Shown piece by piece: positions 10,201 to 36,588 of a stretch of DNA of 62,865 nt. The position numbers were made by a program, and so were the translations under genes. Each line of letters starts with the position of its first letter. Position 1 is the stretch's first letter. This DNA comes from a virus (taxonomy: Duplodnaviria; Caudoviricetes), in the IMG/VR virus record IMGVR_UViG_3300034023_000183, positions 1 to 62,865 of that record; one strand, written 5' to 3'. The notes beneath the pieces are model-generated. The model was not told the origin of the DNA and did no database searches. It worked only from the letters and a program-made list of their open reading frames with translations.

Positions 10201-13200
10201 AAGAAGAAATAGATACCAGAGTATCTGAACTTGAGGCAATGTTGGCGGATAATATTGCAGCTATCGAGGAGACAGGTACTGGCAAATTATCAGAGGCAGA
10301 AGTTGAGGCTGCACGCAGCGAAATTGAAGCATTGAAGTCTGAAGTTCCAGTAGAGACAGCAGCAAAGATGCCAGCCGCTAAGCCAGTGCCACCTATAGCG
10401 GAGACTACTGACACAAAGACCTACTCTGAGGCCCTTAGTTCTGCAAAGGCTGAACTCAAGGCAGAGGGTAAAGGATTAGACCTGCAGGTATCTGATGTAT
10501 CCCAAGAGGAGGCAGATCAGATTATAGCTGATGGAGGAAAGATATTCATGACTGAAGACGGACTGGCAGGAGCCTACGTTAAGAAGGACGGATATATGGG
10601 CGGTCTATTCAAGAGTCCTAGAGCTACATACAATAAGGTAGCGAAGTTGCTTCAGCAGGCACGTATTAAGGTAGGTGGTAGATTCATGGATGCTTATGCT
10701 ACAGAACTTGAGAAGATATACATAGAGAACGGATTCCGTCCAGTTGCACGACTTAAGTTCAATGAGGAGTATGCACCAGAAGGATGGGATGCACCAGGAT
10801 CAGCGTTGGCATCTAAGCCAGACGTTGTGTTCTTTGCGTATGATCCAGATGGAAAGTATAGCATAGGTGACGGTGAGTACGTGACTGACTATGACGCTGC
10901 ATACGAGATGGCCAAGAACTTTGATTCTAAGGTCTCTAATGAAGCAGACAAGTTGGCAGAGTTGATGAAGGGATCTACAGTTGTTGAGGGGACTGAACAA
11001 CAGGTTGATGCTTTAATAAAGGAGATAAGTAATTCTGAAGACGTTGTTTCTGAGCGTTATGTTCTTGAGGCGGTTAATAATGCGACAAAGGCATTGAGAG
11101 CTATACTTCCAAATGTGAAATTCGTACTTCACAGTACAGACGAGTCATTTAGAAAAGCTGTTGGTGAGACAAACGAGACAGACTCATCACGTGGAGCATT
11201 CGATCCTGGAAAGAAGGTTATACATATAAATCTTACAAAGGCAAACAGAAGAACTGTGATGCATGAGGTATTTCATGCTATTATCGTGTCTAAGGTATCA
11301 TCTGATGCTAAGCTTCAGAGCTTGACAAAGAACATGGTCAAATCTGTAATAAAGTCATTGAAGCAGTCTGGTGCAAATCAGAACGTAATTACTTATCTAG
11401 AGGAATTTTCAGCTGGATATAAGGCTGAGGAGCAAAATGAGGAGAAGTTGTCTGAACTTTTTGCATTGCTTGGAGAGACATATAAAAGTCTACCTTATCC
11501 AACTCAGAACATTATCCAACGATTCTTAGATAGAGTCGCAAAGATGTTTGGTCTTAAGGAGATGACTGACCGTGAGGTTGTAGATTTCATGAACTCATTG
11601 TCTGGCAGAGTTGAGGCTGGTATAGAAATTAGTCCTAAGGAGTTTAAGGTAAGTAAAGCTACGATCAAGAGTGCAGTAAAAAAATTCCAAGCTAATTTTA
11701 AAGATGAAGTATCTGGGCTTGAATTTGTCTATGATGAAAACGGAGAAAAATTTGCTGAACTAGAAAAGGATGGATTTATAACTAAGGATAGATCTATAAC
11801 AAACTTTGATGGTCAATACATGTTCTTTCATCAGCCAGATGCAGCATTCTCTGGAATGATAGTTAAGCGTAACAAAAAAACTGGAGAAGTTGAACTTTTA
11901 ATTGAAGGAAAGGGTGGAATGTATTACCCAATAAAATTCCATGAGAATGGGTTTTTCTGGGCCAGTACAAGCAAAGTAGCTGAAAAAATGGCTAATGACT
12001 TGAATGAAGCTATGGAACAAAATGGAGGTAAATTATTGATGGCCTTAACATCAGCTCCATACGATAAGCTTTTATCTAGCACTACAGCTGCAAATTCAGT
12101 TATGGACTTAATATCTTCAAAAGCATTTGATAGAAATTTTGCCATAAGTCCAGCTCAATTAAAAAATATATTAATAAACGCAGCCGCTTTCACTAAAGAG
12201 CAAAAAAATATTATCAAGGATAAAAACAAAAAACCTATTCTAGATAAAAACGGAAATGTTCAATATAGAATTAAAAATGTTGGTTTAGGAATTAAAATCA
12301 AAAAAGGAGATTCATTAGAAGATGTAAAATCAAAAATAAAAGAATTATTGAATCCAGACGCTAAATCATTTGCTGATAGAAAGACTTTTGTTGAGGCAAT
12401 GATAAAAGAGACTGTTGATATAATAAATTCAAATCCTAAAGCTATAAGTCAATTTGGAGAATTTTTTAGTACTGGAATACAAAACAAATATTTCAAGGGC
12501 ACAAGAAAGAAGGGATATAACATATCTACTGCAAATATGAAACAAGCTTTGTCTGAGATGTTGACAGAACCAATGCTGAAGGAAGGTGTTAATAGAGACA
12601 AGGGAGGACAGATATATGCAATAATAGAACTAGATGGAAAGGTTAAGCCAGTTGATTCTGATCTGCATGAATCATATCCTAAAGCTATACAATCAGTTGA
12701 TCCTAAAAACAATAAAGTTAAGCTACATATATTGACTGATCGAGTTAAATGGAACGAAGTAGCTGAAGATTTTGAGACCAATGATATTGTTGCCCCTGGG
12801 GATAGAGAATTAGAGATATTTCCTACTAGCGGTATATCTGTTAGAGCATTAAAAATAAACACCAAAAACATAGTCACAGAAGAGAAGGCTACTGAAGTTG
12901 AGGATAAATCAACCATCAAAAAGCAAAAACCACTACAGCCAGAGGTAGCTGAAAAGCTGACGGAAGACGGTAAGGGTAACTTTGTGTTCAATCACTACTC
13001 TGATAAAAAGAGAGATGTGATCAAGCCTGGAACGGGACAGAACATTATTACCAGCCGAGAGGAAGGTAGTGCGTTAAGTGCTGTCGGTGGATTGGCTCAG
13101 TACTACACAATGGACATGCAGAAGGAGATGGGTACTGGTCCTAACCAACACACCATACTCATACCTATGGACCGTGTGTACTACTTCAACAAGGATCAAG

Positions 13201-16200
13201 ATGGATTCTATGACGAAGCGAAGAGAAGATTTGAAGAGGTGCGTCCAGGTCAAGCATTCAGTCCGAACTACCAAGTGGCATTCATAACGCAAGTTGCGAA
13301 TGAGAATGGGTACGACATAGTTGTTGCTAACTGGAGAAACGGAGAGCTTCGTGCTCAGACTACTTTGGAGCTTACACCTTCAGACAAAATAATCAATTTC
13401 AAGCCATTGAAGGAGGTTACATATGAGGTAGGAGACACTATTGAAGTTTACGGTGGAAAGGCAAAGATCACTGCTATTGATGGTGATATAATAACTTTCA
13501 AGGGTGAAACAACTGGTGGTACTATAAACTTCAAGAGAAGTCCAAAGAGCATCCAGAAGGTAGCTACTCCAAAAGCACAGGTTGAGGAAGAGGTGAAGTC
13601 TCTAGATGAAGAGATGAAGCCTAAGATGAAGAAGCAAAGAGTAGATAAGGCATCTGAAAAACTTCAACAGTTATTTGAGAGAGATAATGTACCACTTAGC
13701 ATTCAAGAGGCAAAAGATATAGTAAATGAAGTTTATGACTGGACCACATGGTACGATGACTTAAAGTCATATGTTGACGGAATATTTGGAGAATACGCTG
13801 AGGATGTATTATCAATGTTACCTTTATCTTCTCAAGCTGCTAACAGTGCAACTACTGTAGCATTAGCAATAAAAAATGCAGAACTTATATACCAAGGAGA
13901 AAAGCCTGTAGGTGTTGCAGAGTACTATGGATATGTCACTGATTTCTTACAAGGCAAAGGAATAAAGTCAGATAAGATGTATAACTTCTTTAAGGCTTTG
14001 GATGGCGATAAAGATGCTATTGCTGTTGACATGCATGTTTGGTCAATAATAATGGGTAAAAATCCAGATAAAAAACAAGTAAACCCTAAAAATCAAGCAG
14101 AATTTGACAGAGCAAAAGAATTTATAAATACTTTAGCTACTGAAATGGGGCTTGCTCCAAGAGAGGTCCAAGCTGCATTATGGGCAGCAAATATAATGAG
14201 AACTGGAGGAAGACCAGATAGCTATGAAGAATACTTTAAAAAACAACTAGATGGAAAAGGACTTAAAGAAAGGATCGAAAACTGGAGGAACGAAGGCTAT
14301 AAGCCATTTTCTAAAGTTCGTAGAGAAAGAGAAGCAGAAAACCAACCAAAATTCAAAAAACAAAAGCCAAGCAAACAAGCAGACGTGATTGTGAAGACTG
14401 GTAAGGAGGCTGGGTTCTCTGACGCTGGTATCCGTGAGTATATGAAGCGTAACGGATATACTGACCGTCAAGCTACTGATGCGATAAGGGCATACAACGA
14501 CAAGAAGGAGGGTATATTTATCGATCCAGAGTGGTCTAAGTTGAGAAAGGCAGCCGTTATATTCAAGCGAAGATTCTTATTGTCTCGTGGATTAATGCCA
14601 AGTTCTGCATTTGCTTCATATGAAGAAAGTCAAGCTAACACAGCAAAAGATTTTAATAGAGCTGAAAAAACACTAGTTGACTTCAATCGTGCTATGAAAA
14701 AAGTTCCAAAGGCAGACAGAGATAAAGTTAGAATAGACTTTGATGAATATGTTCGTGGAGACAATACGGTATCTCTTCCTGCTGATTTGAAAAAAGTAGC
14801 AGATACTATGCGTGCTCACATTGATTCAATCTCTATAAGTTTAATAAACAGTGGAGTTGTTGATGAACACTTAGCACAAAAGATAAAAGACAATCTTGGA
14901 TCATATTTCACTAGGTCTTATAAGGTACATGACCGTGCAAACTGGAAGAATGAAGTTGAAGAAGATATAAAGCAGAAGGCCATAAATTTATTGAAGGTTC
15001 AATATAGGAAAATGGCAGAAGAAGAAGCTGCTAAGGAAAACATGGATGTAGAGGAAGCTCTTGACAACCTTGTTACTAATGCTGTTAATGATATGCTCAC
15101 TAAATCTGGTGCAGAGAACTTTGTTTCTGGAGGCAAAAAGGGAAGCAAGGATTTATCTATACTAAAGGAGAGACAAGATATTCCACTTGAGATTCGTATG
15201 TTGATGGGTGAATACACAGATCCAGCACAGAACTATGCAAGAACAATCCTTAAAATGTCTGCTCTTGCAGCAAATCATCACTTCTTAACAGAAGTAAAGA
15301 AGAATGGAACTGGGGTATTTTTATTTGAAAAGAATGATCCTAGAAGGCCTTTAGATTTTGATTACAAAATTGCGGCCGAGGGAAGTGAAACCATGAATCC
15401 TCTCAATGGTATGTACACCACTGAGGAGATAGGAAAGCAGTTTGAAGAACAATCATCTCAACTTAATGGTGCCCTTAAGTGGATGCTAGAAACATACATG
15501 AAGGTTCTATCTTCTGTCAAGTGGGGGAAAACCATTGGTTCAATCATGACTCACGCAAAGAACGTGTTTGGTAACCTTGGATTTGTTTTGCTAAATGGTC
15601 ACTGGAGAGTAAATGAAATGGGTAAAGCATACCAAACTGTAAGACGTGATTTGTGGTCAACAGATAATGAAAAATCTAGAGAATACATGAATCACCTAAT
15701 AGGTCTTGGTATTGTAAAACAATCTGCTGGTATAGGTGAACTTCGTGCAATGTTTAAGGATGCAGATTGGGATACTGCAATGGTTGAAAGACTAAATAAA
15801 AAATCTTCGTCTGCATTGGAATTTATTAAATATAAAATTGGTGGTAGAGTAAAAAAATTCCTAGAAGACAGATACCAAGCTGAGGATGACTTCTTCAAGA
15901 TTGTCGCATACGAGAATGAGCTTTCTAGATATTCTAAGGCTATGTTTGGCAAAAGAAAGACAGAACTTACTAAAGAAGAAAAGGCAGAGGTAGATAAGGT
16001 TGTAGCTGAAATAGTTAAAAACACTTATCCAACATACAGTAGAATACCAGAGCTTGTTAATGTAATTAGAAAATTCCCATTTGTTGGTAACTTTATAGCG
16101 TTCCAAGCGGAGTCATACAGAACTGCATTTAACACAGCAGCACTTTCACTAGAAGAGATTAGATCTAAAAATTTTAAAATTAGAATGATTGGTGCTCAAA

Positions 16201-17090
16201 GACTTGTTGGATCATTAACGTATATGGCAGGTAAGACTGCTATATTGTCTGCATTTTCTAATGCAGTTGGTATGGGATATGTTGGAATACTTGGATATTT
16301 TACGGATGATGATGATGAAAAGCAAAAAGAGAATGATGTTAGAAAATTCGTAGCTCCTTGGTCTAAGAACTCAGACCTAGTTGTTTTAAAGGCAAGTAAT
16401 GGAAAGATACGATACATAGACTTTAGTTCATCAGATCCTCACGGAGGAATCAACAAGGCACTAAACTCTGCACTATCTGGAAAGACTACCATTGACGGAT
16501 TCATAAATGCAATAGGTTCAACCATTGAACCATTTGTGGGTGAGGAGATGACAACGGCTGCAATACTTGCTGTAAAAAACAATCAAGACGCATACGGAAA
16601 ACCTATATACAATCCAGAGGATACATTCGCTCAAAAGTCTAAGGACATAATAGCTTATATGCTGAATGTTGTGCAGCCTGGGACCGTTAGTACAATGAAG
16701 AGGATATATGAATCTGAGAGTGTTCTAAATGAAGTTCTTGGGGCATCTACAGGTATGAGAGTATATGACGTGGATGTAGCTGAGAATTTTGGTTACTCTA
16801 TGATAACCTATAGAAATAGAATGGAGGATGCTAAGAGAATATACAACTCTGAGGTGTATTCAAAGGATGCGACAGATAAGTCTATTGCTGATGCAAAGAA
16901 GAGAGCCGAGAATGCAATAACTCAGATACACAAAGAGATATACGAAAGGTATTACTCGGCTGTTAGATTGGGTGCAAATGAGGATGTATTGTTTGACAAT
17001 ATAAAAAGATTTGGAAGAATGTCAAATATAGATATGCAGTTTATGTTTGGAGAGATTCCATATCTTATGGAAGAAAAATACGCAGAATAA
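7203..17090 (+). CDS. Large polyvalent virion protein (GNAT-like, zincin HExxH, ART-like, HhH glycosylase-like domains)
   Basis: 3295 aa; MDAYATELEKIY..NGF.PVAR.KFNEEYAP.GW; VMHEVFH; NHYS; AIAVDMHVW...REVQAALW. Confidence 0.7.
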   Translation: MNDKQKELYSYLRDNDLTDLDSTAFFSKYSDPSKSKEIYAYLKQNGMTDLDANAFHVAYFSPVKKKSTTVSPSVQKKKPTSSGTMPSWMQSSLEQSSKKEQAAKKTVVPKKAKSSNISLDVESLKNPNAPKKEKQDFDIYYGYPGQEKNQYRISNGRWQRKYGQNWVDVSNPGSIDSLTKFFKKEKEILKDEKVFTGFPGKENNRYRISELQNGQKVWEVQRSGQKDFTVIADQGSIDALNRQFNKKIQYNDDAQSKREAQINRRESASEDFKTVTGKLVGKESDEVSKYLNKLYGNRGFRFTPVGWLTDRIRVSAEGTDRTEIFELDNWTDNTDSAEALKLRKFLSENQQLGDYIDLEREEEKNAEKDILGTELTREDLDKQISRLRVAGNQAEFKSAQKQNTEENIAKGLNKNSTDVIEARKTLIRAKYDTNQRIDDLTKTAKTKSEKSELAAIAMANKGNFVETHKVDNEYINDLNKTSKALDGDLKQLKSDVDDFNAYIKENKITKEQLESDPELMAKKDSIQVRYDQLVASADEFEFESKKIPFIQQQNSRNAALYFAYNETRGSVIGSTWNGLVRGFLAPMQTFRVVDKEGLDNVVEFLGSSSTAEFAQSKDRNDLSRALLSTSESLGAAVMARLTGGIATEGTIASKALQFTPFFSISYNEMQNEINSIPGMNKVPWYKKEALCIAYGIGVGYLDKLSTDFSVKGKISNKIGRDLVLRSIAGLPKGASAEAIEMAIASNFKKSLAAGTIKIIAGSVVEGITEGVQSTYGTGLKEAYDWMNGVDEFDSREWISQALEETYYGALGGSIMSTPSALLKGTKDGFARLNPQQMELARKVIEDSNMRSMVITDIKTKLMSGEITKEEANSQMEAIKESQALFSKIPDNLSAESTSRAMDLIKERSVIEQQIKGKDKDLVIARTRRIAAINNELKVISENAIKESTEQQQEGTAEGGVVQREGVVEGQPEVGQGEGTVGQTTEQGTDIGDRTVEGRSQEEIDTRVSELEAMLADNIAAIEETGTGKLSEAEVEAARSEIEALKSEVPVETAAKMPAAKPVPPIAETTDTKTYSEALSSAKAELKAEGKGLDLQVSDVSQEEADQIIADGGKIFMTEDGLAGAYVKKDGYMGGLFKSPRATYNKVAKLLQQARIKVGGRFMDAYATELEKIYIENGFRPVARLKFNEEYAPEGWDAPGSALASKPDVVFFAYDPDGKYSIGDGEYVTDYDAAYEMAKNFDSKVSNEADKLAELMKGSTVVEGTEQQVDALIKEISNSEDVVSERYVLEAVNNATKALRAILPNVKFVLHSTDESFRKAVGETNETDSSRGAFDPGKKVIHINLTKANRRTVMHEVFHAIIVSKVSSDAKLQSLTKNMVKSVIKSLKQSGANQNVITYLEEFSAGYKAEEQNEEKLSELFALLGETYKSLPYPTQNIIQRFLDRVAKMFGLKEMTDREVVDFMNSLSGRVEAGIEISPKEFKVSKATIKSAVKKFQANFKDEVSGLEFVYDENGEKFAELEKDGFITKDRSITNFDGQYMFFHQPDAAFSGMIVKRNKKTGEVELLIEGKGGMYYPIKFHENGFFWASTSKVAEKMANDLNEAMEQNGGKLLMALTSAPYDKLLSSTTAANSVMDLISSKAFDRNFAISPAQLKNILINAAAFTKEQKNIIKDKNKKPILDKNGNVQYRIKNVGLGIKIKKGDSLEDVKSKIKELLNPDAKSFADRKTFVEAMIKETVDIINSNPKAISQFGEFFSTGIQNKYFKGTRKKGYNISTANMKQALSEMLTEPMLKEGVNRDKGGQIYAIIELDGKVKPVDSDLHESYPKAIQSVDPKNNKVKLHILTDRVKWNEVAEDFETNDIVAPGDRELEIFPTSGISVRALKINTKNIVTEEKATEVEDKSTIKKQKPLQPEVAEKLTEDGKGNFVFNHYSDKKRDVIKPGTGQNIITSREEGSALSAVGGLAQYYTMDMQKEMGTGPNQHTILIPMDRVYYFNKDQDGFYDEAKRRFEEVRPGQAFSPNYQVAFITQVANENGYDIVVANWRNGELRAQTTLELTPSDKIINFKPLKEVTYEVGDTIEVYGGKAKITAIDGDIITFKGETTGGTINFKRSPKSIQKVATPKAQVEEEVKSLDEEMKPKMKKQRVDKASEKLQQLFERDNVPLSIQEAKDIVNEVYDWTTWYDDLKSYVDGIFGEYAEDVLSMLPLSSQAANSATTVALAIKNAELIYQGEKPVGVAEYYGYVTDFLQGKGIKSDKMYNFFKALDGDKDAIAVDMHVWSIIMGKNPDKKQVNPKNQAEFDRAKEFINTLATEMGLAPREVQAALWAANIMRTGGRPDSYEEYFKKQLDGKGLKERIENWRNEGYKPFSKVRREREAENQPKFKKQKPSKQADVIVKTGKEAGFSDAGIREYMKRNGYTDRQATDAIRAYNDKKEGIFIDPEWSKLRKAAVIFKRRFLLSRGLMPSSAFASYEESQANTAKDFNRAEKTLVDFNRAMKKVPKADRDKVRIDFDEYVRGDNTVSLPADLKKVADTMRAHIDSISISLINSGVVDEHLAQKIKDNLGSYFTRSYKVHDRANWKNEVEEDIKQKAINLLKVQYRKMAEEEAAKENMDVEEALDNLVTNAVNDMLTKSGAENFVSGGKKGSKDLSILKERQDIPLEIRMLMGEYTDPAQNYARTILKMSALAANHHFLTEVKKNGTGVFLFEKNDPRRPLDFDYKIAAEGSETMNPLNGMYTTEEIGKQFEEQSSQLNGALKWMLETYMKVLSSVKWGKTIGSIMTHAKNVFGNLGFVLLNGHWRVNEMGKAYQTVRRDLWSTDNEKSREYMNHLIGLGIVKQSAGIGELRAMFKDADWDTAMVERLNKKSSSALEFIKYKIGGRVKKFLEDRYQAEDDFFKIVAYENELSRYSKAMFGKRKTELTKEEKAEVDKVVAEIVKNTYPTYSRIPELVNVIRKFPFVGNFIAFQAESYRTAFNTAALSLEEIRSKNFKIRMIGAQRLVGSLTYMAGKTAILSAFSNAVGMGYVGILGYFTDDDDEKQKENDVRKFVAPWSKNSDLVVLKASNGKIRYIDFSSSDPHGGINKALNSALSGKTTIDGFINAIGSTIEPFVGEEMTTAAILAVKNNQDAYGKPIYNPEDTFAQKSKDIIAYMLNVVQPGTVSTMKRIYESESVLNEVLGASTGMRVYDVDVAENFGYSMITYRNRMEDAKRIYNSEVYSKDATDKSIADAKKRAENAITQIHKEIYERYYSAVRLGANEDVLFDNIKRFGRMSNIDMQFMFGEIPYLMEEKYAE

Positions 17091-28614: not shown

Positions 28615-28764
28615 CTCTCTTAATTTTTAAAGTATAACTGAACCATTACCAAGATGGATAGGTAACACACCACCACCACAGGTACTTTTAATACGTTGTT
28701 CCGACCTAACGCCACACCGACCATCAGTGCGAACGTCAATACAATTGCTAGGATAATCATCTAG

Positions 28765-28968
28765 TTAGTTTAAATAAATTTCCTCGATGTCTATCATGAA
28801 GACCAACCTGCTCACACCAACGACCTCCCACGTGTCGTCATCCATATACTCCGATAGGAATACGTTGATTGCCATTGCCAACTGCTGAAAGTCGTCGGCT
28901 GCGAAGTTAAACACCATCACCAATGGCGTGTTCTTCTTTTCTTTTACTAATACTCTGTACTTCTTCAT
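28765..28968 (-). CDS. Hypothetical protein
   Basis: ORF just downstream of the tRNA. Confidence 0.45.
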   Translation of the reverse strand: MKKYRVLVKEKKNTPLVMVFNFAADDFQQLAMAINVFLSEYMDDDTWEVVGVSRLVFMIDIEEIYLN

Positions 28969-28984
28969 AACATTTGATTTTTAG

Positions 28985-29058
28985 TGGACCATGCAGGGAT
29001 CGAACCTGCGACCTTCTGATTATGAGTCAGATGCTCTGACCTATTGAGCTAATGGTCC
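28985..29058 (-). tRNA. tRNA with CAT anticodon, probably tRNA-Ile2 (lysidine) rather than Met
   Basis: GGACCAT TAGCTCAATAGGTCAGAGC A TCTGA CTCATAA TCAGA AGGTC GCAGG TTCGATC CCTGC ATGGTCC A; GACTCATAATC is typical of Ile2; CCA not encoded. Confidence 0.9.
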
Positions 29059-29125
29059 AAATGCCACACTCCCGTAGTGGCCCACCTTACCTAACTAACC
29101 ATAAACACAACATGAAAACATGTTG

Positions 29126-29173
29126 TCGATAGGGGAGGAATCGAACCTCCTACAGACCGTCGTCTACCTATCG
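29126..29173 (-). ncRNA. tRNA-like minihelix RNA (acceptor stem + T arm + one hairpin)
   Basis: CGATAGG TAGAC-GACG-GTCTG TA GGAGG-TTCGATT-CCTCC CCTATCG A. Confidence 0.6.
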
Positions 29174-29227
29174 ATTGTCCAGTTTATGACGCAATAAACT
29201 GGACTTTATTCACCATGAAAACCTTTC

Positions 29228-29285
29228 GTGGTAAGGGGTTGACTCGAACCCGACTACGCTGTGTCTACCATTCCACCACATGAGC
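29228..29285 (-). pseudogene. Degenerate tRNA-Leu-like remnant without anticodon arm
   Basis: GCTCATGTGGTGGAATGGTAGACAC (Leu-type D arm) followed by GGTTCGAGTC; acceptor stem does not pair. Confidence 0.45.
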
Positions 29286-29289
29286 AATG

Positions 29290-29297
29290 CAAATATA
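29290..29297 (-). promoter_or_regulatory. -7 box TATATTTG driving the tRNA cluster
   Basis: 5 nt upstream of the Leu-like 5' end. Confidence 0.55.
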
Positions 29298-29303
29298 GGT
29301 AAC

Positions 29304-29561
29304 CTATATCTCTTTCACAACTTTATACATTACTTTTTTTGCTATGCCAGTCGTTCGATGCTGGAACACAGCCATGGCTCTCTGCCGATTAATCTCATCC
29401 TGTATCTCCATGCTGACCTGTAGGTTGGTCAACACCAAGGTCACGACAAACGACAATGGTACAAGAAGGACCAAGAACACCAACGGTGCGCCAATCATCC
29501 CGAATAACAGCCCCAACCCCAGTGAGACCGTTGTGCTGAAATATGTTACAAGAAACTTCAT
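29304..29561 (-). CDS. Small membrane protein (2 TM)
   Basis: Long hydrophobic N-terminal half. Confidence 0.5.
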   Translation of the reverse strand: MKFLVTYFSTTVSLGLGLLFGMIGAPLVFLVLLVPLSFVVTLVLTNLQVSMEIQDEINRQRAMAVFQHRTTGIAKKVMYKVVKEI

Positions 29562-29783
29562 TATGTTGAATTTATGTTGAATTTATGTTAAAACTTTTTG
29601 GCTAAGTGTCTGATTTATAATACTTCATGTTAGTATGTTGAAACTATCCTATATTCTGAGCAAAAAATAAAAATACAAGAAATAAGAAAAAAGTGTCTCC
29701 AAACCAACATATCGTCATAAACCCAGTGTTTACGGGCATCTATGCAACATATTTTCAACATGTTCCCAACATAAATGTAACAT
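29561..29783. repeat. Origin-like element A: phased TATGTTG repeats, AT-rich core, inverted CAACAT repeats
   Basis: TATGTTR at 29562/29573/29584; YAACAT at 29745/29756/29767/29778 (11-bp phasing). Confidence 0.6.
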
Positions 29784-30024
29784 TCCCGTCAGTCAATACC
29801 CCAACCACATACGTGTCCTCGAAGTATAGCTGATACCCGTAGTCAGCGATGAACCGCTTCAAATGTTTCTCGATCGATCGTCTAACCTCATCGCCTTCAA
29901 TCGACATTGAGGACTTCGACATCCAGAGCTTTGTTGTCGGCTCACAATCATCACCCGTGGCGAGGTTGTAGTAGGCTACCCGATTGTCGAGTAGCCTGTC
30001 TACGAATCCAAATAGATTTTTCAT
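29755..30024 (-). CDS. Early hypothetical protein
   Basis: ORF. Confidence 0.4.
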   Translation of the reverse strand: MKNLFGFVDRLLDNRVAYYNLATGDDCEPTTKLWMSKSSMSIEGDEVRRSIEKHLKRFIADYGYQLYFEDTYVVGVLTDGNVTFMLGTC

Positions 30025-30041
30025 AGCTCCTAAGTTTTAAG

Positions 30042-30278
30042 TTATTGTTCATCATCCATTTCGGGCATTCCATCGTAAAAGAAGTCGGGGCAGTCAGACA
30101 TGTCCATGTCTTGTTTGCACGAATAACAAGTTATCGTATTGTCCTTGTCAAAGTCATTTAGCGATACCATCCTGTGCAGGATTACAGCTCCGCAGTTGCC
30201 ACATGTCACCATATTTATGTCAGCCATAGCCCTAATCTCATTCATGAGTTCGAGCTGATATTTAAGTGTTCCTTCCAT
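30042..30278 (-). CDS. Small Zn-ribbon-like protein
   Basis: CGNC...CYSC...CPD. Confidence 0.55.
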   Translation of the reverse strand: MEGTLKYQLELMNEIRAMADINMVTCGNCGAVILHRMVSLNDFDKDNTITCYSCKQDMDMSDCPDFFYDGMPEMDDEQ

Positions 30279-30290
30279 GATTTCTAAGTT

Positions 30291-30575
30291 TTAAAATACA
30301 CCAATACTTCTCAGTGCGTTCGCATCTGAGTCAAAATTTCTCAAGTCGATGGACTTACCCAAGTCCTTCACGTACTCATACAGCTCCCGTGTCTCTGCAT
30401 CCATGAATAGTATGTGCCCGATACCTACCTTGTACGGGTTGCTGTACGACTGGATGCCGTTCCACACGGCTGACCCATAAGTGTTCATTGGGGGACACTT
30501 CTTCTTGATCATCCCCTTGTTTGGTCCTACGCTTACTATGGCTTCCTGTAGGCCGATTTCTAGTTTGTCTTTCAT
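30291..30575 (-). CDS. Early hypothetical protein
   Basis: Start at conserved TAGAAACCATG motif. Confidence 0.5.
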   Translation of the reverse strand: MKDKLEIGLQEAIVSVGPNKGMIKKKCPPMNTYGSAVWNGIQSYSNPYKVGIGHILFMDAETRELYEYVKDLGKSIDLRNFDSDANALRSIGVF

Positions 30576-30586
30576 GGTTTCTAAGT

Positions 30587-31102
30587 TTAAAATGTCCAAT
30601 CATAATGGTAGTCGCAAGCACCAAACAAGATGTTGATTTTGCTGTACCCCTTCTTCTTACGTGTGATTCCTTCCACCACGTTCTTAGGTCTAATGTCACC
30701 TCCGTACACCGCCTCCTGCTGTTCTTCAGTCAGAGACTTGAACAAGGCGAAGATGCCATTGGAGTTAGCCTGCTCAATCCACTCGTCCGTGAATACCACC
30801 TCGTGGTATACCTCCTTCCATCCACCATTGCGGTAGCGTAGTGTACGCAGGTGACCCGTTGGTGTGTGCTCCCAATGTTGATGACCCATGCCTATCTTTC
30901 GACCCATCTCTGAGGCGATGGTGCTGTAGTCCTCGATGATTACCGTCTTGCCGTCCTTGGATACGTCCACGACCTTGGCTACGTCTCGGTCTGAGTAGTG
31001 ACATATGGTTGCCCACTCGCCCACTACAGGCACGGATGAGTTGTTTGACATGAGCCAGTTAAAGAACGAGCCCGAAGTCTTAAGTGATTTTGTCTGATTC
31101 AT
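30587..31102 (-). CDS. Early hypothetical phage protein
   Basis: P.VG..AT...YSDR...Y.DW.F. Confidence 0.55.
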   Translation of the reverse strand: MNQTKSLKTSGSFFNWLMSNNSSVPVVGEWATICHYSDRDVAKVVDVSKDGKTVIIEDYSTIASEMGRKIGMGHQHWEHTPTGHLRTLRYRNGGWKEVYHEVVFTDEWIEQANSNGIFALFKSLTEEQQEAVYGGDIRPKNVVEGITRKKKGYSKINILFGACDYHYDWTF

Positions 31103-31107
31103 GATTT

Positions 31108-31338
31108 CTAGTGTTTTAAATAAAAAAATACCTCGTCGCTTGTCAAGTCATTCTCGAAGATGACCTCATCCATTAGACATGAGCCGAACCCAGATGCATA
31201 GTTAAAGGCTACAGCCTTGGCTCTCATTACCGACTCGTCTCTTGAATCCTCATCGAAACTCTCTTCGAAGCATATTGTCTGTACGTACGTTGCATACACC
31301 TTGGTCGGTGTGATGATTACATTGATTTTTGTTGGCAT
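31108..31338 (-). CDS. Early hypothetical protein
   Basis: Preceded by TAGAAATCATG. Confidence 0.45.
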   Translation of the reverse strand: MPTKINVIITPTKVYATYVQTICFEESFDEDSRDESVMRAKAVAFNYASGFGSCLMDEVIFENDLTSDEVFFYLKH

Positions 31339-31343
31339 GATTT

Positions 31344-31523
31344 CTAGTTGTTAAGGTACGTTTCGTAAATTTCTACTAATTCTTCTCCGTCAACTATAAA
31401 CGGCTCTTCCTCTTCCAAGAACCCAAATTTACCATTGTCCGTTACTTCAAATTTATCATCGTCAATTCTTGAGATATCAAAACCTGCTTTCAATAATTCT
31501 TCAAATGCTTTTTTCGTTTCCAT
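31344..31523 (-). CDS. Early acidic hypothetical protein (59 aa, not in ORF track)
   Basis: METKKAF...YLNN*; preceded by TAGAAATCATG. Confidence 0.5.
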   Translation of the reverse strand: METKKAFEELLKAGFDISRIDDDKFEVTDNGKFGFLEEEEPFIVDGEELVEIYETYLNN

Positions 31524-31570
31524 GATTTCTAAAGTTTAAGTTGGTTTGTTCAATCGTTCACAATCACGCC

Positions 31571-31816
31571 TCATAGGGAGGCGATGATTTTAAATAGTCG
31601 CACCTTGTTTGAGTCTATCAATCTATGAAGGTCGTGGAAGTCCTCGCTACCAATGTAGCTTGGTCCAAGCAATTCAATACGTTCGGCTATGTTCTGCTCA
31701 AACAATGATATTGAGTGAAGCAATGACAAAGCTTCAGTCAACTCAGCTGATTTTACCTTGTCACCATCAATGTGCATCCTTAACAATGATAGTGTTGTCT
31801 CGTGTCTTTTGTTCAT
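31571..31816 (-). CDS. Early hypothetical protein
   Basis: ORF. Confidence 0.45.
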   Translation of the reverse strand: MNKRHETTLSLLRMHIDGDKVKSAELTEALSLLHSISLFEQNIAERIELLGPSYIGSEDFHDLHRLIDSNKVRLFKIIASL

Positions 31817-31820
31817 GATT

Positions 31821-32009
31821 TTAAAATTTTAATATGAATCTATCCTCTCTTCCTGCTTTATTCTCACCTTCATTGAATTCTTCTGGTGTCTTGTAGTCTG
31901 TCTCATAGTAACTATTGAATTCGTCTAGGAACTCAAATAGTTGTTCGTCCCCATTGAATCTTTGATTCCCGTCGGCATCTTGCACGACATAAATGTGCTC
32001 TCTTTTCAT
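31821..32009 (-). CDS. Early hypothetical protein
   Basis: ORF. Confidence 0.45.
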   Translation of the reverse strand: MKREHIYVVQDADGNQRFNGDEQLFEFLDEFNSYYETDYKTPEEFNEGENKAGREDRFILKF

Positions 32010-32034
32010 GATTACTTGTGTTTAATGGTTTATA

Positions 32035-32316
32035 CTATTGTGCACACAGCTCCCAAGTCTGCAATGCCAACATTTTTTTCTTCGTTAAGCCTAGCTCCTT
32101 GATAATGAACTTGGCTAGCTTGGTGTTGCCTGCCATACCCTCGCTAATTTCACCCGTGCCAATGGCATCTACAACGTCTCTAGGTGACAAGCCTAGCACT
32201 CGGCTACAGAACTTTACGTCCTGTCCTAGGTAAAACGACTTCACACCCTCTACTACTAGCGTCCATTCGTGCCCGAACCCGTAGCTACCTCTTGTAATTT
32301 TGATTGTTGCTTTCAT
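32035..32316 (-). CDS. Early hypothetical phage protein
   Basis: FYLGQDVKFC.RVLG motif. Confidence 0.55.
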   Translation of the reverse strand: MKATIKITRGSYGFGHEWTLVVEGVKSFYLGQDVKFCSRVLGLSPRDVVDAIGTGEISEGMAGNTKLAKFIIKELGLTKKKMLALQTWELCAQ

Positions 32317-32326
32317 GTGCTTATGT

Positions 32327-32683
32327 TTATCGGTTTAAAAATTTTTTCGTGTAGTCTCTATCTGAGATGGCTTTGTAGTCATTCGTAATGAACGGGTTCT
32401 TTAACACGTTCTTGAACGTCCGTCCGTTTGGCATGCTGTACTCTATCACGTACCCATGTTCGGGTGAATAGTCGATGAAGTGTCCGTCTCTATCCGCTTG
32501 GTTTCTAAACACTGATACATGGACACCATTAAGAAGTATCTGTACCTCTCTCATGACAAAGTCCACTAGTATTTTCTTACCTTCTAGGACGTACTCCAAC
32601 GTGACTATGTTACCTGTCATCTCGTGTACTCTGTAGGCGTTGCCTCTCATGTCTCTGTGGTTTACATTTACAATTGCTTTCAT
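32327..32683 (-). CDS. Early hypothetical protein
   Basis: ORF. Confidence 0.5.
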   Translation of the reverse strand: MKAIVNVNHRDMRGNAYRVHEMTGNIVTLEYVLEGKKILVDFVMREVQILLNGVHVSVFRNQADRDGHFIDYSPEHGYVIEYSMPNGRTFKNVLKNPFITNDYKAISDRDYTKKFLNR

Positions 32684-32685
32684 GA

Positions 32686-32919
32686 TTAAATAATTTTAAA
32701 TGGTACATGTGTAAGGTCATACTTTATGCCCTCTATTGATTGGTTGTCGACATAATCTATCCTGTCGAACTCTATTTCCCCGTCTACTAACAAGGAAACT
32801 TCTAACTCGCCTTGGCTTATTGCCTCCTCAATTAAGAACTCGTCCGATAGCTCGATCAAGTCGTCAGCCCCCCTGTCTCTCAAGTATTGGGCTATGGTCT
32901 GTTTTGTTTGATACTTCAT
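32686..32919 (-). CDS. Early hypothetical protein
   Basis: Preceded by TAGAAACCATG. Confidence 0.45.
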   Translation of the reverse strand: MKYQTKQTIAQYLRDRGADDLIELSDEFLIEEAISQGELEVSLLVDGEIEFDRIDYVDNQSIEGIKYDLTHVPFKII

Positions 32920-32928
32920 GGTTTCTAG

Positions 32929-33258
32929 TTATTTAATGGTTAAAAAATACGCCTCGTCAAACGGGTAACGCTCACCTGTGTAGTTGTCGTTGAAGACTAG
33001 CTCGCCATCCCCATTGAAACGGAAGGCGATAGCGTCCTGCGTGAACACATAGACAAGACCTTGAATCATTATCCTTATGTCGTCTTGTGATGAGTCAGTA
33101 TAGAATTCCATTACCACGGTAGGCTCGTCAGCTCCCTCCCATTCGCCTACCTGTACGTTGTGTTTAACCGACGTGTACGAAGACACAAACGGCATAACTA
33201 TTTCCTGTGCTGTGAATGGGTTGTTGTTCAACCCAATGTTCATTTCAATTTTGTTCAT
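32929..33258 (-). CDS. Early hypothetical phage protein
   Basis: NIGL...EPT.V...QDAIA...FD..YF. Confidence 0.55.
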   Translation of the reverse strand: MNKIEMNIGLNNNPFTAQEIVMPFVSSYTSVKHNVQVGEWEGADEPTVVMEFYTDSSQDDIRIMIQGLVYVFTQDAIAFRFNGDGELVFNDNYTGERYPFDEAYFLTIK

Positions 33259-33415
33259 GATTTCTAGTGTTTAAAGGTTGCCTGCGGTGGCTATCTTGTG
33301 GCGCATAGCCCACTCATCCACCGCTTGTTGGCGTTATACATTTGTTTGTTTGTGGGTCGGATACCTGCTGTTGCAGTACATGGTAGTTAGCTCAAAGCAC
33401 CCATCCCCTTTTGTC

Positions 33416-33574
33416 TTACTTGCCTATCACCACCTCGGTGTCTAAGTGCTCGGCAACTATGCCAATCAGCTCTAGGCGTTGTAGATTTGTTGCGGTAGCG
33501 TAAAGCTCCCGTAGTTTCTGTGCTGTAGCCGAGTCCAACTCAGCTATCAGCTCTTCGAATTTGCGTTCAAACAT
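33416..33574 (-). CDS. Early hypothetical protein immediately downstream of hammerhead
   Basis: Likely start MFERKF. Confidence 0.45.
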   Translation of the reverse strand: MFERKFEELIAELDSATAQKLRELYATATNLQRLELIGIVAEHLDTEVVIGK

Positions 33575-33588
33575 GTTACTTGTTTTAT

Positions 33589-33640
33589 GGTTAAGACCCC
33601 ACGAAGGGGGTTTCGCTGACCTACAGCTCATCAGTTAACC
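33589..33640 (-). ncRNA. Hammerhead ribozyme (type I, minimal)
   Basis: GGUUAA CUGAUGA GCUG-UAGGU-CAGC GAAA CCCC-CUUCGU-GGGG UC UUAACC: full core, three stems, GUC cleavage triplet. Confidence 0.85.
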
Positions 33641-33866
33641 TCTTGTATTTTTTAGGTATCTTGTTATACATTCTCATGGTATGGGTGGATGACCAACAAT
33701 TCAAATATACCTCTGTAATTACTATCGTCTTGGCGTTAACTCCGCTGTGCAATAGCAACGTGCCCAAGCCTACTCCACCTTCCTCAATCTGAAGGACCTC
33801 GCCTTCATATTCGTTTACGTATCTGTCGATGATATCTTGTACGTACTTTAAGCTAAATGTTCTCAT
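33621..33866 (-). CDS. Early hypothetical phage protein
   Basis: EG..GLG...I.EVYLN.WSS.H....Y.K.PKKY. Confidence 0.55.
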   Translation of the reverse strand: MRTFSLKYVQDIIDRYVNEYEGEVLQIEEGGVGLGTLLLHSGVNAKTIVITEVYLNCWSSTHTMRMYNKIPKKYKRLTDEL

Positions 33867-33886
33867 GGTTTCCTAGTTTTAAATGT

Positions 33887-33994
33887 TTATTTCCAATTCG
33901 TTACGAGACGACGTGTCTCTTTGATTTTTACCCCGTTCAAAAAGTAGCCAATAATCTCATACTGACCCTCAATTCTCAAAATTTTTGCTTCCAT
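33887..33994 (-). CDS. Very small early ORF (35 aa)
   Basis: MEAKILRI...NWK*; preceded by GGAAACCATG. Confidence 0.35.
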   Translation of the reverse strand: MEAKILRIEGQYEIIGYFLNGVKIKETRRLVTNWK

Positions 33995-34008
33995 GGTTTC
34001 CTGTTTTT

Positions 34009-34194
34009 TTAGTCGTTAATGTCTTCGTTGTGCTCAAATGTACCCGTCTCTAAGTACTCCAGTATCTCACCTCTGTAGGCATACTCCACGAGTATGTCAT
34101 TGTTGTCGATGGTGTAGATTGTACGACCATCTACGTCGCCTGTTGGTCTGATGACTCCCGTCACCACGTACCAAATGAAAATAATGTTTGTCAT
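34009..34194 (-). CDS. Early hypothetical protein
   Basis: ORF. Confidence 0.45.
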   Translation of the reverse strand: MTNIIFIWYVVTGVIRPTGDVDGRTIYTIDNNDILVEYAYRGEILEYLETGTFEHNEDIND

Positions 34195-34212
34195 AATAAT
34201 TGTGTGTTAACC

Positions 34213-34389
34213 TTATTTTTTGGTGTAGTATACACCCTCGTGCATTACCTTGCCTGTCTTAGAATTGACGTACAACGTGTAGACCATGTACTTGTAGCCT
34301 TTACGCTTTGCATGTGGTGTAATTTTGTCTGTTTTGGTCCATGTCACATGCATGTCGCCATTCAGTTTTTGGAAGATTACTTCGTTCAT
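34213..34389 (-). CDS. First early hypothetical protein
   Basis: Likely start MNEVIF, downstream of the tRNA-like element. Confidence 0.45.
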   Translation of the reverse strand: MNEVIFQKLNGDMHVTWTKTDKITPHAKRKGYKYMVYTLYVNSKTGKVMHEGVYYTKK

Positions 34390-34409
34390 GATATTGTGTT
34401 TTAAGTTAG

Positions 34410-34455
34410 TCCCCATGCAAGGTTGCGACCCTTGATTAACTCGCTCGACATGGGG
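34410..34455 (-). ncRNA. Second tRNA-like minihelix
   Basis: CCCCATG N14 CAAGG-GTCGCAA-CCTTG CATGGGG A CTA: 7-bp acceptor stem stacked on 5-bp/7-nt T arm. Confidence 0.55.
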
Positions 34456-34805
34456 TTGAAGTAAGTAGGGGTTGACCTGCACCCCATAAGGAATTGCCAT
34501 CTTTTCTCGCAAGGCTGTGCGACTTACTCCTCAGTGTTTTTATTCGCAGGGGCTAGCACCATTCCCCCCAATGTATGGTTGTCTTGCAATCATTACCCCT
34601 GCGGTTGCTTCCACGCCATATCTAACAGCGTTTACCTTCTCGCAGGTCTTTTTTGCATCGTGCATCTTTCCATGATGCGTTTCCATACTTCAGACCGCCT
34701 TGACTAGATTAGGTGGATGCATTGTTACCACCGACAACGAAACCTCTCAGCGAGGGAAATTACTCGAATTACGTGCCTAGATTAGACTGAATTAATGAAA
34801 CCGCA

Positions 34806-34817
34806 ATGTCAAAGAAC
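34806..34817 (-). promoter_or_regulatory. rrn-type boxA antitermination element
   Basis: GTTCTTTGACAT on the - strand, ~115 nt downstream of the early promoter. Confidence 0.65.
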
Positions 34818-34931
34818 GTGTGTGTATTCGTATTGTAGCTCACTCGCTGTACTTGTCATGTTCCGTGGTTGGCTGTGTCACCCCCTTTTAATTACGTTAA
34901 GACTTGTAGTGTTTAGCTCGTTTGCTTGAAT

Positions 34932-34962
34932 CAAAATTACTTCAGCACTTTCGATATTGCAA
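34932..34962 (-). promoter_or_regulatory. Major early promoter (TTGC -33-like, TAATTTTG -7)
   Basis: CAAAATTA at 34932-34939 and GCAA at 34959-34962 on the + strand. Confidence 0.55.
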
Positions 34963-34985
34963 GCTTTTTTCAAATTATTTTTGGG

Positions 34986-35066
34986 TACGTAGATGATTTA
35001 GAGTAGAACTACGTAGATGGTACTAAGTAGAAATACGTAGATGGGATCTAAGTAGAAATACGTAGA
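34986..35066. repeat. ~24-bp tandem repeat AGTAGAAMTACGTAGA
   Basis: TACGTAGA at 34986, 35010, 35034 and 35059. Confidence 0.75.
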
Positions 35067-35189
35067 CAGACGGGTTTGCATCCATTGTTTTACAGGTTAA
35101 GCTGTTGACAGATAGGACTTTATACGTGAATTCATTTAGGTGGGCCAAATATCTTTGGGGCTGATAGGTAGATAGGTGGGATGATTCTA

Positions 35190-35560
35190 TGTGCGAGGGA
35201 GTGCGTGCCGTATCAATTGGCGTATGGGTGCACGGCATGTCGGAAAGCATGCATGCTCGTGCGTCATGCGTGACGTGTGACATGTGCGTGCAACACGTAT
35301 GCGTGTACGTCGAGCGAGCGAGCGACATGTGTGTGTGCATGCATACATGTGGGCAGGCAGGCATGTCACCTGTGCGTGCGAGCGTACACGTGGGCGGACG
35401 GGCGGTAGGCACACAGGCAGGTGTGCACGTGTGACGTGGGCATGAGCACGCATGATGGCATGCCTACAGGAAAAGCCAAAAATTCCTAGGCAATTTACCG
35501 AATTGGACACCCCCCATCACGAATTCAACTAGTTTCCGTGCGTGCATGCGTACGTGAATT
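35190..35560. repeat. GC-rich alternating purine-pyrimidine tract dense in 6-bp palindromes
   Basis: Runs such as TGTGTGTGCATGCATACATGTG; many GCATGC, ACATGT, CACGTG, GTGCAC. Confidence 0.7.
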
Positions 35561-35593
35561 CTATATATTATCCGATACCCCCGATCGTGCAGC

Positions 35594-35866
35594 TATGTTG
35601 GATTATGTTGGTTTATGTTGAATTTATGTTGGTTTGAAGTGCCTCAAACCCTTGATTTTCCTCACTTTATGTTAGTATGTTATAACTTTCTCTACTTTTC
35701 ACGAAAAAAAAAATAATACATAATATAGGAGATATATACTTAATAAATGCAGAAAAAAGTAAAAAACGCTTATCAAACCAACATACCAACATGAATGTCT
35801 GATTATCAACACTTTAGCCCAGATAATTCAACATGCTTTCAACATGTACTATAGGTGTTTCAACAT
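35594..35866. repeat. Origin-like element B: TATGTTG iterons, two IHF consensus sites, AT-rich core, inverted CAACAT repeats
   Basis: TATGTTG at 35594/35604/35614/35625; CAAACCCTTGATT 35645-35657; TATCAACACTTTA 35804-35816; CAACAT at 35829/35840/35861. Confidence 0.65.
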
Positions 35867-35915
35867 ATCTATGGGTTTTTCACCATGAGCTAAAATTAGC
35901 TCACAAAAGACCTTC

Positions 35916-35944
35916 TGTCACAAATAATGACTACATTTGTGACA
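35916..35944 (+). promoter_or_regulatory. First late-arm promoter (TACATTTG) embedded in palindrome TGTCACAAAT-N9-ATTTGTGACA
   Basis: Perfect 10-bp inverted repeat overlapping the -7 box at 35932-35939. Confidence 0.55.
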
Positions 35945-35955
35945 AATAAAATTCA

Positions 35956-36588
35956 ATGGCATATATAGAGCACAATTTCTTTCCTCTCAAGGTATTTGTT
36001 AGGAATGAGTACATGTACCAGCAGACGAAGGGTCATGGTGAGTTCACCCCAGGGGTAGTCATATCTGTTAGATGCATGCCTGGTCAGGCTGCACTGTTCC
36101 AGGTCTTGCTAGAGAACGGTGTCCTACGGGACAAGCTACCGAGCCACGCACTGTTGACATCACCAGAGCTACCAGATCCAGACCTACCGTTCCACTATCT
36201 ACAGCTGTGGAACTGTTTCTCTTACAACTTCACGTTGGTGAGTCTGTCATATCTGTACGACACACCAGTCGAGGTGTACATGAAGGACAAGAAGTTTTAC
36301 CCAGGTGTTTACTACGGCACGATAAACTGGGGGTCTAACGACCTAAACACTGACATATCTTTGGCAGAGGATCCGCTGGAGCACAAGAGTCACCACATCA
36401 TACTACTTGACAACGGTCAGATAGCTTTGCAGCCTAACAACAGGATCAAGTGGTCGGAGCCAAGCTTTGTTACGAAGCCGTTCCCAGAGAAGCCAGACTA
36501 CTTAGTGAACAAGGAGTGGTTCAACTGTGAGGGCTACGAAAAATGGCATACTGAGGACTCCGAAAGGATGTTCTATGACAATGAATAA
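35956..36588 (+). CDS. Conserved hypothetical phage protein
   Basis: VRNEY, LQLW.CFSY, EHK.HH.I.LDNGQ...QPNNR motifs are recurrent in aquatic phages. Confidence 0.6.
   Translation: MAYIEHNFFPLKVFVRNEYMYQQTKGHGEFTPGVVISVRCMPGQAALFQVLLENGVLRDKLPSHALLTSPELPDPDLPFHYLQLWNCFSYNFTLVSLSYLYDTPVEVYMKDKKFYPGVYYGTINWGSNDLNTDISLAEDPLEHKSHHIILLDNGQIALQPNNRIKWSEPSFVTKPFPEKPDYLVNKEWFNCEGYEKWHTEDSERMFYDNE

Follow-up and report, generated by a model that had tools for sequence, protein, structure and literature searches.

How does a phage organize the opening of its early message when a single strand carries, in succession, a host-like promoter, a signal of the ribosomal RNA (rRNA) operon type, a hairpin resembling half of a transfer RNA (tRNA), a ribozyme and a genuine tRNA? 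The question is raised by IMG/VR virus record IMGVR_UViG_3300034023_000183 (Duplodnaviria; Caudoviricetes), whose whole length of 62,865 bases, rated 100% complete, is the window analyzed here. Its minus-strand genes extend from ~17.1 to 35.0 kb and include a helicase and a primase whose N-terminal domain is BT4734-like, and positions 28985-34962, minus strand, are the start of this leftward early and replication block. An earlier note on this DNA had proposed that the phage disguises its first message as a stable-RNA operon, transcribed in one piece from 34.9 to 29.0 kb, cut by host RNase P/Z and a ribozyme, and needing no phage regulator. Judged from the sequence and its relatives, the early region probably comprises several units instead: a boxA-bearing leader, a release slot in front of the first gene, a hammerhead cassette and a separate tRNA array (Table 1).

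The signals of this phage are of the Bacteroidota type, as judged from the absence of Shine-Dalgarno sequences at its gene starts, from the TAnnTTTG boxes ahead of several genes, which we take to be the Bacteroidota promoter type, and from the BT4734-like primase domain; the public runs listed as containing the phage are DNA runs of lake-water metagenomes, with no RNA run among them. The promoter that the earlier note had placed at the head of the region was recovered by a pattern scan with the Bacteroidota consensus, is conserved in the relatives L097 and L153, and would place the transcript start near 34926. The same layout, followed by AGCAAAYGAGCTAA, recurs in L097, L153, L281 and L287, and the leader that follows in the window is ~540 nucleotides (nt) long and probably driven by this host-type promoter. 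A 25-nt motif near its 5′ end is shared with L097 and, when used as a pattern against IMG/VR, returns L097 and L153; alignment A7 gathers 14 non-redundant leaders, L283, L285 and L294 having been dropped beforehand as identical over the compared stretch. A small hairpin begins at this motif, and its structural support is weak: of the 15 pairs in the consensus fold of three leaders, one is changed on both sides. The larger claim, that the 553-nt stretch before the first open reading frame (ORF) is one structured RNA, was given up, as its folding z score is -1.30, nine of 100 shuffles fold as well, and conservation among close relatives is mosaic. In L291, a 119-nt insert (838-957) some 13 nt past the inferred start carries part of a second AAAAGGGGGGTGA leader motif.

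First, the boxA reported in the earlier note is indeed of the rRNA type of the presumed host phylum. It lies ~110 nt after the inferred start, in the sense strand, and its first nine letters, GTTCTTTGA, occur nowhere else in the 62.9-kb window on either strand; phage loci contain the word at a background frequency of 22 per 2.9 million strand-bases, from which 0.004 occurrences would be expected in the leader. For comparison, Bacteroidota rRNA operons were fetched via a standard 16S probe site and the 450 nt before the 16S gene were taken from each (n=91). Among the commonest 8-mers of these 16S leaders is GTTCTTTG (30/91), and the pattern [GT][CT]TCTTT[GA]A is present in 37 of the 91, mostly ~90-140 nt ahead of the 16S gene, as against 6 of the 91 reverse complements. 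The 16S-23S spacers give a similar picture, with G[CT]TCTTT[GA]A matching 21 of 78 in sense and 3 in antisense, and none of 92 16S bodies; all 21 sense matches are GTTCTTTGA, mostly followed by CATATTG. The window's 12-mer thus equals the Bacteroidota spacer consensus at 12/12 positions, and its 9-mer the 16S leader consensus at 9/9. Because this consensus is present on the sense strand of leaders and spacers alike, which is the known behavior of boxA, we read it as such, a label that rests on position and on a likeness to the boxA of E. coli and B. subtilis.

The word is kept in the related leaders. Within 25-200 nt past the 5′ motif, GTTCTTTGA is exact in 5 of the 14, present with at most one mismatch in 10 and with at most two in all 14, while the reverse complement comes within one mismatch in none of the same 14 stretches. 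As it is found in four different flanking contexts (ACACAC-, GTAAAA-, AGAACA-, ATATCA-), it is the word itself that appears to be retained, and its distance to the conserved 5′ motif is constant, at 78-110 nt. That constancy across four contexts argues against an alternative that we consider unlikely, namely that the elements of this region are unconnected: the boxA-like word serving repression or acting as a DNA site, the hairpin before the first gene being an operator or coding sequence, and the hammerhead a passenger of a mobile cassette. Other observations on boxA weigh against a connected leader. Two leaders, L097 and L281, have only the two-mismatch form GTTATTCGA; the genome-level relative L120 has no boxA; in other hammerhead-bearing phage loci GTTCTTTGA is not generally linked to the ribozymes (eight occurrences, three in sense, none within 4 kb upstream), which favors unconnected elements; and a boxA in a 5′ untranslated region can repress, with E. 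coli suhB as the example given in the portion of PMC10931766 drawn on here.

According to the same portion, the boxA of rRNA operons and of the lambda nut site (NusB-S10, NusA, NusG, SuhB, S4; PMC10931766) is likewise single-stranded, in sense, and early in the transcript. The phage word is identical to the rRNA boxA of the host phylum, yet no rRNA lies downstream of it: the genome has no match to the small-subunit rRNA family, which 14/14 control genomes match. The leaders also depart from lambda, since no boxB hairpin 3′ of boxA is conserved in alignment A7, no N homologue was found (the early ORFs have no family match), and the conserved hairpin precedes boxA by 60-80 nt. The function of boxA as an anti-termination site in Bacteroidota is putative.

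Second, the stretch immediately before the first gene behaves as a slot whose occupant is exchanged between relatives. It is readable in 13 of the 14 leaders, nine of which carry a hammerhead or hammerhead-like element of type III and four, the window included, a small hairpin that we call the minihelix. The variant hammerheads retain stem II through a two-sided change (UCC/GGA versus UCG/CGA). A point that weighs against a working ribozyme in this slot is that five of the eight complete hammerheads break the 10.1/11.1 pair rule, three of them also having C at core position 4, so by published rules these variants may be weak or dead. On the aligned sequences, gene boundaries in this phage group have slots that are filled by ribozymes or by a tRNA-like hairpin, and that all 13 readable slots hold one or the other is difficult to square with unconnected elements.

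The minihelix itself (CCCCAUG - 14 nt - CAAGG GUCGCAA CCUUG CAUGGGG) has two stems, an outer one of 7 base pairs (bp) and an inner one of 5 bp, separated on the 5′ side by a bulge of 14 nt and closed by a 7-nt loop; the 3′ strand is continuous, and the element is present in the minimum-free-energy fold of the leader. The tRNA-like minihelix of the earlier note thereby gains comparative backing: in alignment A8, all 12 pairs form in 4/4 sequences (47/47 cells paired), and two pairs are compensated, A-U replacing C-G in L286 and G-C replacing A-U in L288, while slid controls show no two-sided change. With four sequences, and with 38 of 500 column shuffles equaling this covariation, the support is moderate. 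The unpaired nucleotides are nearly invariant. Most of the element falls within 13 codons, CGA to AAC, and in these five of the seven variable sites fall at first or second codon positions and third positions hardly vary, whereas the ORF directly downstream varies freely at third positions; this difference points to constraint on the RNA. Both the codon pattern and the two substitutions that restore pairing count against unconnected elements. In favor of these, no stop codon interrupts the reading frame across the minihelix in 4/4 sequences, and an N-terminal coding extension is possible. Two further points weigh against a specific structure: the bare 7+5-bp topology is common (23 matches in the window against a simulation mean of 15), and the loop GUCGCAA differs at two key positions from the T-loop consensus.

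Could the minihelix instead cleave itself, as a ribozyme of a class not yet described that stands in for the type III hammerhead? It occupies the same slot, its unpaired nucleotides hardly vary, and a 151-nt search of its strand returned no Rfam family at E values up to 10. It is also very small and simple, no conserved pseudoknot partner for its loop was found, and it is known in four sequences, its core pattern having no match in IMG/VR; we therefore regard a ribozyme as highly improbable. In their predicted form, the 12 stacked pairs, unbroken 3′ strand and 7-nt loop mimic the half of a tRNA that is formed by acceptor stem and T arm, and we read the element as a processing signal mainly because it sits where relatives have hammerheads. 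Among published elements, its nearest counterpart is the plant-mitochondrial t-element (Forner et al. 2007, PMC1920247); in the portion of that paper drawn on here, t-elements are tRNA-like or acceptor-stem-like structures beside mRNA ends that are thought to direct RNase P or RNase Z. The present element differs in belonging to a bacterial phage, in being known from sequence alone, and in lacking the T-arm motif GGTTCRANYCC once used to find t-elements, a motif that one of the tRNA remnants discussed below (remnant 2) does have.

From these sequences, from how well they are conserved and from which relatives have or lack them, we infer the binding, anti-termination and cleavage steps of a possible mechanism. 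The nascent boxA would bind host NusB-S10 and make RNA polymerase termination-resistant, as in rRNA operons; the polymerase could then cross a long untranslated leader and ribozyme-bearing spacers without Rho-dependent termination; and the minihelix would act as a processing signal that parts leader from message, a host tRNA-processing enzyme being the likeliest agent. Tentatively, and with less than even confidence, the leader can be viewed as a two-step device in which boxA loads the Nus complex and an interchangeable module, either a type III hammerhead or a minihelix cut by host RNase P/Z, provides release.

Table 1. Features of the early region and occupants of the slot before the first gene in related leaders
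Feature	Position or locus	Strand	Particulars
Early promoter	34932-34962	-	Bacteroidota type; -33 TTG, N20, -7 TAATTTTG; pattern scan
5′ leader motif	34880-34904	-	AGTCnnAnCGTAATTAAAAGsGGGT; exact pattern in 2 IMG/VR loci and 14 metagenome loci
boxA (12 nt)	34806-34817	-	GTTCTTTGACAT; rRNA-operon type
Minihelix	34411-34455	-	12 bp, conserved; 3′ end 21 nt before first ATG (34389)
First early ORF, 58 residues	34213-34389	-	ATG at 34389; homologues in L286, L288, L291
35-residue ORF	33887-33994	-	Homologues in L097, L153, L291, L286, L288
Cassette, 312 nt	33575-33886	-	81-residue ORF (33621-33866) plus hammerhead
Type I hammerhead	33589-33640	-	Full core; minimum-free-energy fold is a three-way junction
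Small-ORF block	30278-33258	-	Starts share TTAAA..C(T)TAGAAA(T/C)CATG; repeat families D5, D6, D10
Repeat module	29545-29800	-	ATGTTG/CAACAT words; paralogue of 35585-35900; alignment A4
tRNA array promoter	29290-29320	-	TTG-N20-TATATTTG; directly before tRNA array; kept in L084, L154
tRNA remnant 1	29228-29279	-	Lacks 25 nt, 3′ end differs from sister contigs; alignments A1, A3
tRNA remnant 2	29126-29174	-	Resembles a t-element; 8-bp acceptor stem, 4-bp hairpin, canonical T arm GGAGGTTCGATTCCTCC; no anticodon arm
tRNA-Met (CAT)	28984-29058	-	ARAGORN; Rfam 77.3 bits
Slot: canonical type III hammerhead	L097, L282, L293		
Slot: type III variant	L281, L292		U.U at 10.1/11.1
Slot: type III variant	L153, L284, L287		U.U variant plus C at core position 4 (for U)
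Slot: start of hammerhead	L290		Contig ends inside
Slot: minihelix	window, L291, L286, L288		
Slot: not readable	L289		Contig ends at +310

Third, a hammerhead does lie among the small ORFs, as the earlier note had claimed, with a complete core and a predicted three-way junction. It reads GGUUAA-CUGAUGA-GCUG..CAGC-GAAA-CCCC..GGGG-UC-UUAACC, with CUGAUGA at 33634-33628 and GAAA at 33614-33611; core positions C3 U4 G5 A6 N7 G8 A9 and G12 A13 A14 all agree, the stems are of 6, 4 and 4 bp plus an A-U pair, and G10.1-C11.1, A15.1-U16.1 and the GUC triplet are in place. Self-cleavage is predicted after GUC, between 33595 and 33594, so that a ribozyme at the end of an accessory cassette would cut 20 nt ahead of the ATG at 33574, where the next ORF starts; loop II of the ribozyme contains the stop codon that ends the upstream ORF. 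Our own descriptor (stems of at least 4, 3 and 3 bp) finds this one site in the window, matches 6 of 300 simulated windows, and finds none in 790,603 bases of unrelated phage loci plus 730,261 bases of Bacteroidota rRNA loci (1.52 Mb). Two results weigh against an active ribozyme. The site falls under the Rfam gathering cut-offs: a whole-window Rfam scan returned no hammerhead, and the best scores of a 161-nt search were 23.5 bits for RAGATH-1-hammerhead (cut-off 56.3) and 15.6 bits for HH9 (cut-off 52). In addition, no stabilizing tertiary contact was found in it; a candidate pairing of UAGGU in loop II with ACCUA 20 nt upstream was dropped, L120 having no counterpart. Since seven descriptor matches in the four loci L089, L097, L120 and L123 likewise stay below the gathering cut-off, the Rfam models seem to miss this family with its short stems. 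In IMG/VR, 67 stretches match the core pattern when it includes this stem II, and among the collected loci (rRNA loci excluded) the descriptor gathers 46 distinct type I sequences with covarying stems, the window's among them; family members from L089, L120 and L123 have the same stem I. The family was judged by descriptor and controls and not by a covariance model, MAFFT having put the 3′ halves out of register. An Rfam search of 28700-36000 at E values up to 10 returned no other ribozyme class.

The ribozyme travels with its cassette. In L291, L286 and L288, the three closest relatives, 33887 is joined directly to 33574, and since they lack the cassette, the window's hammerhead is cassette-borne and dispensable for the operon as such. 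Contigs assembled from four DNA runs offered no usable hammerhead variation. The absence in these relatives, together with cassettes that come and go at shared start motifs (see below), is what the hypothesis of unconnected elements would predict. Hammerheads nonetheless recur at gene boundaries in L120, a 62,236-base genome with terminal repeats whose primase is 46% identical to the window's over 798 residues and whose chaperonin is 48% identical, and none of whose small early ORFs matches those of the window. Its corresponding operon has four hammerheads, each ending ~15-50 nt before the next ATG, and in both genomes unrelated upstream ORFs end in RLTDEL and a stop, encoded by the 5′ half of the ribozyme. 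A hairpin, GTGTCTTCAAAGACAC, also occurs four times in the early operon of L120 (minus strand, 7810, 9320, 10240 and 11120), once as a hammerhead stem III.

Hammerhead punctuation of phage operons has been in print since 2011, and in this respect the window's hammerhead is ordinary. In the portion of Perreault et al. 2011 (PMC3088659) drawn on here, several hammerheads flank varying genes in prophages, one halovirus hammerhead lies 13 nt ahead of an early gene, and the arrangement is read as processing of long phage transcripts into gene-length mRNAs. As there, canonical hammerheads lie between small phage-operon genes, often several per operon and with inconstant neighbors. Unlike the set in that portion, the present ones come from phages of freshwater Bacteroidota-type hosts, have a short 6-bp stem I (GGUUAA/UUAACC) and score below the Rfam cut-offs; the 5′ half codes for RLTDEL and the stop of two unrelated ORFs, and the window's ribozyme comes and goes with a 312-nt cassette.

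Fourth, does the tRNA array belong to the early message at all? The tRNA-Met named in the earlier note is genuine, and the strong folding of this region (z -4.9) includes it. Its two neighbors, which that note had taken for tRNA mimics, fall short of the cloverleaf with anticodon arm and model score of at least 29 bits by which we defined a tRNA; neither is called by ARAGORN or matched by the Rfam tRNA model at E values up to 10, and in Rfam remnant 2 is matched through its T arm only (22.3 bits to the transfer-messenger RNA model). Two sister contigs, L084 and L154, are 89-98% identical to the window, and at the site of remnant 1 they give tRNA matches of 42.0 and 41.9 bits, respectively; L154 has four tRNA matches in total (79.2, 51.8, 41.9 and 40.4 bits). 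The 25-nt deletion in remnant 1 lies between two GGTTCGAGTC repeats, and in remnant 2 an acceptor A-U pair corresponds to G-C in L084, where there is also a 93-nt insert. On this comparison, the mimics are what deletions have left of tRNA genes still intact in the sister contigs; remnant 2 could still be cleavable by tRNA enzymes, and shows no sign of being kept for that. The array would then be a unit with its own promoter that is decaying in this genome, with tRNA-Met alone intact. As in other phage tRNA arrays, tRNA-Met sits in an array whose members come and go between genomes that are nearly identical; what differs is that two members are cut down to acceptor stem and T arm. Two observations concern the same stretch. 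The ~70 nt between remnant 2 and tRNA-Met (29059-29125) are essentially identical in the window, L084 and L154, where the flanks differ by ~10%, apart from a one-base insertion at each end of this spacer in L154, and they contain the palindrome CAACATG-TTTT-CATGTTG, a word of the repeat modules described below. In addition, L084 (500-660) and L154 (1468-1564) have tRNA-like genes with 40-93-nt inserts between the D and T arms.

These results bear on the one-transcript model as a whole, which we now find improbable. Several features do suit it: the boxA is identical to the rRNA-operon type, a true hammerhead is present, the tRNA and tRNA-like elements are on the same strand, and no minus-strand U-run terminator was found between the elements, except a weak one at 29107-29126. 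Considering the separate consensus promoters that end at 29290 and 25941, a single long transcript is not borne out, and since the former is kept in L084 and L154, the array need not be part of the early transcript. No rRNA gene is present in the genome, and the supposed mimics are remnants of tRNA genes. Nor do the elements travel together, contrary to the co-occurrence on which the earlier note had staked its proposal: L120 has four hammerheads and lacks boxA, tRNAs were found neither there nor in L097, L089 or 15/15 further loci of the leader family (L153, L281-L294), and the window's hammerhead is absent from its three closest relatives. What survives of an rRNA-operon-like, RNA-punctuated message is the boxA and the hammerheads, with the minihelix plausible; the single disguised operon does not.

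Fifth, the coding part of the region shows how readily its pieces are exchanged. The small ORFs listed in the earlier note are there, the first of them having no Pfam or PHROG match, and the start motif they were said to share is present at seven ORF starts from 30278 to 33258 and at no other real start in the window. Among the four DNA runs from which contigs were assembled, run X5, which is nearly uncovered at 32419-34695, holds an abundant variant whose contigs join across whole ORFs at the start motif (31335->31521, with 11 shared letters, and 31118->33254). Gene cassettes are shuffled at the start motifs. In the same variant, 14 nt are replaced by 201 nt at 30270-30285. The stems proposed at 33259-33425 were rejected, their z score being -0.29.

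The early block is flanked by two repeat modules of 250-300 nt, each with arrays of ATGTTG/CAACAT, some 11 nt apart, around a common AACATACTAACAT core; the word TATGTTGR occurs 25 times in the window against 6.4 expected and is clustered in these two modules. They look like the binding sites of a regulator or replication initiator and thus argue mildly against the idea that no phage regulatory protein is needed, the clustered repeats being a further point against the one-transcript model. The second promoter of the earlier note was probably meant for the module at 29545-29800, which has no TAnnTTTG box; a consensus promoter does exist nearby, ending at 29290. Four direct ~23-nt repeats built on TCTACGTAnTTCTACT lie directly upstream of the early promoter (34983-35066), in a stretch 93.6% identical in L291, and may be operator or iteron sites. 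Between the other module and the early promoter, 35180-35510 is GC-rich, of low complexity, rich in ACG/CACG and free of any credible ORF; it sits at the minimum of cumulative GC skew and may be a replication origin.

A search with the 7-kb region against phage DNA records matched the tRNA alone (1% of the query), and among genome contigs neither the exact tRNA-Met fragment nor the primase found a match. Searches with a 171-residue ORF led to two distant loci, neither with any of the RNA elements, and those with a 109-residue ORF to no relatives. Rightward genes, a chaperonin among them, run from 35,956 on, and a single 3,295-residue ORF occupies 7203-17090 on the plus strand. The 210-residue protein at 35956-36588 (plus strand; phrog_3704, labeled ferredoxin) is ~90% identical in the best 80 of 442 IMG/VR stretches. 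In none of the 80 is the DNA around its gene related to the window, which makes the gene either very mobile or very constrained. These 80 loci, which have no DNA in common with the early region, were used as negative controls only.

What, then, is unusual here? Not the hammerhead, the tRNA or the decaying tRNA copies, which are ordinary; the less ordinary parts are the boxA leader and the exchange of minihelix and hammerhead; the literature searched (supplements not covered) held neither a Bacteroidota phage leader with an rRNA-type boxA nor a minihelix-hammerhead exchange. Anti-termination has, to our knowledge, hardly been studied in Bacteroidota, and if boxA acts as in rRNA operons, a 12-nt copy of a host signal would give a Bacteroidota phage a simple shield of its early transcription from Rho. 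The slot that holds either a hammerhead or a hairpin is a natural experiment on the purpose of phage hammerheads, a question open since 2011: if all that either occupant does is free a short message capped by structure, a ribozyme would be interchangeable with a site for a host RNase. Should the two-step device be real, the minihelix would be to a bacterial virus what t-elements are to mitochondria, and a tRNA mimic would serve the same function as a ribozyme.

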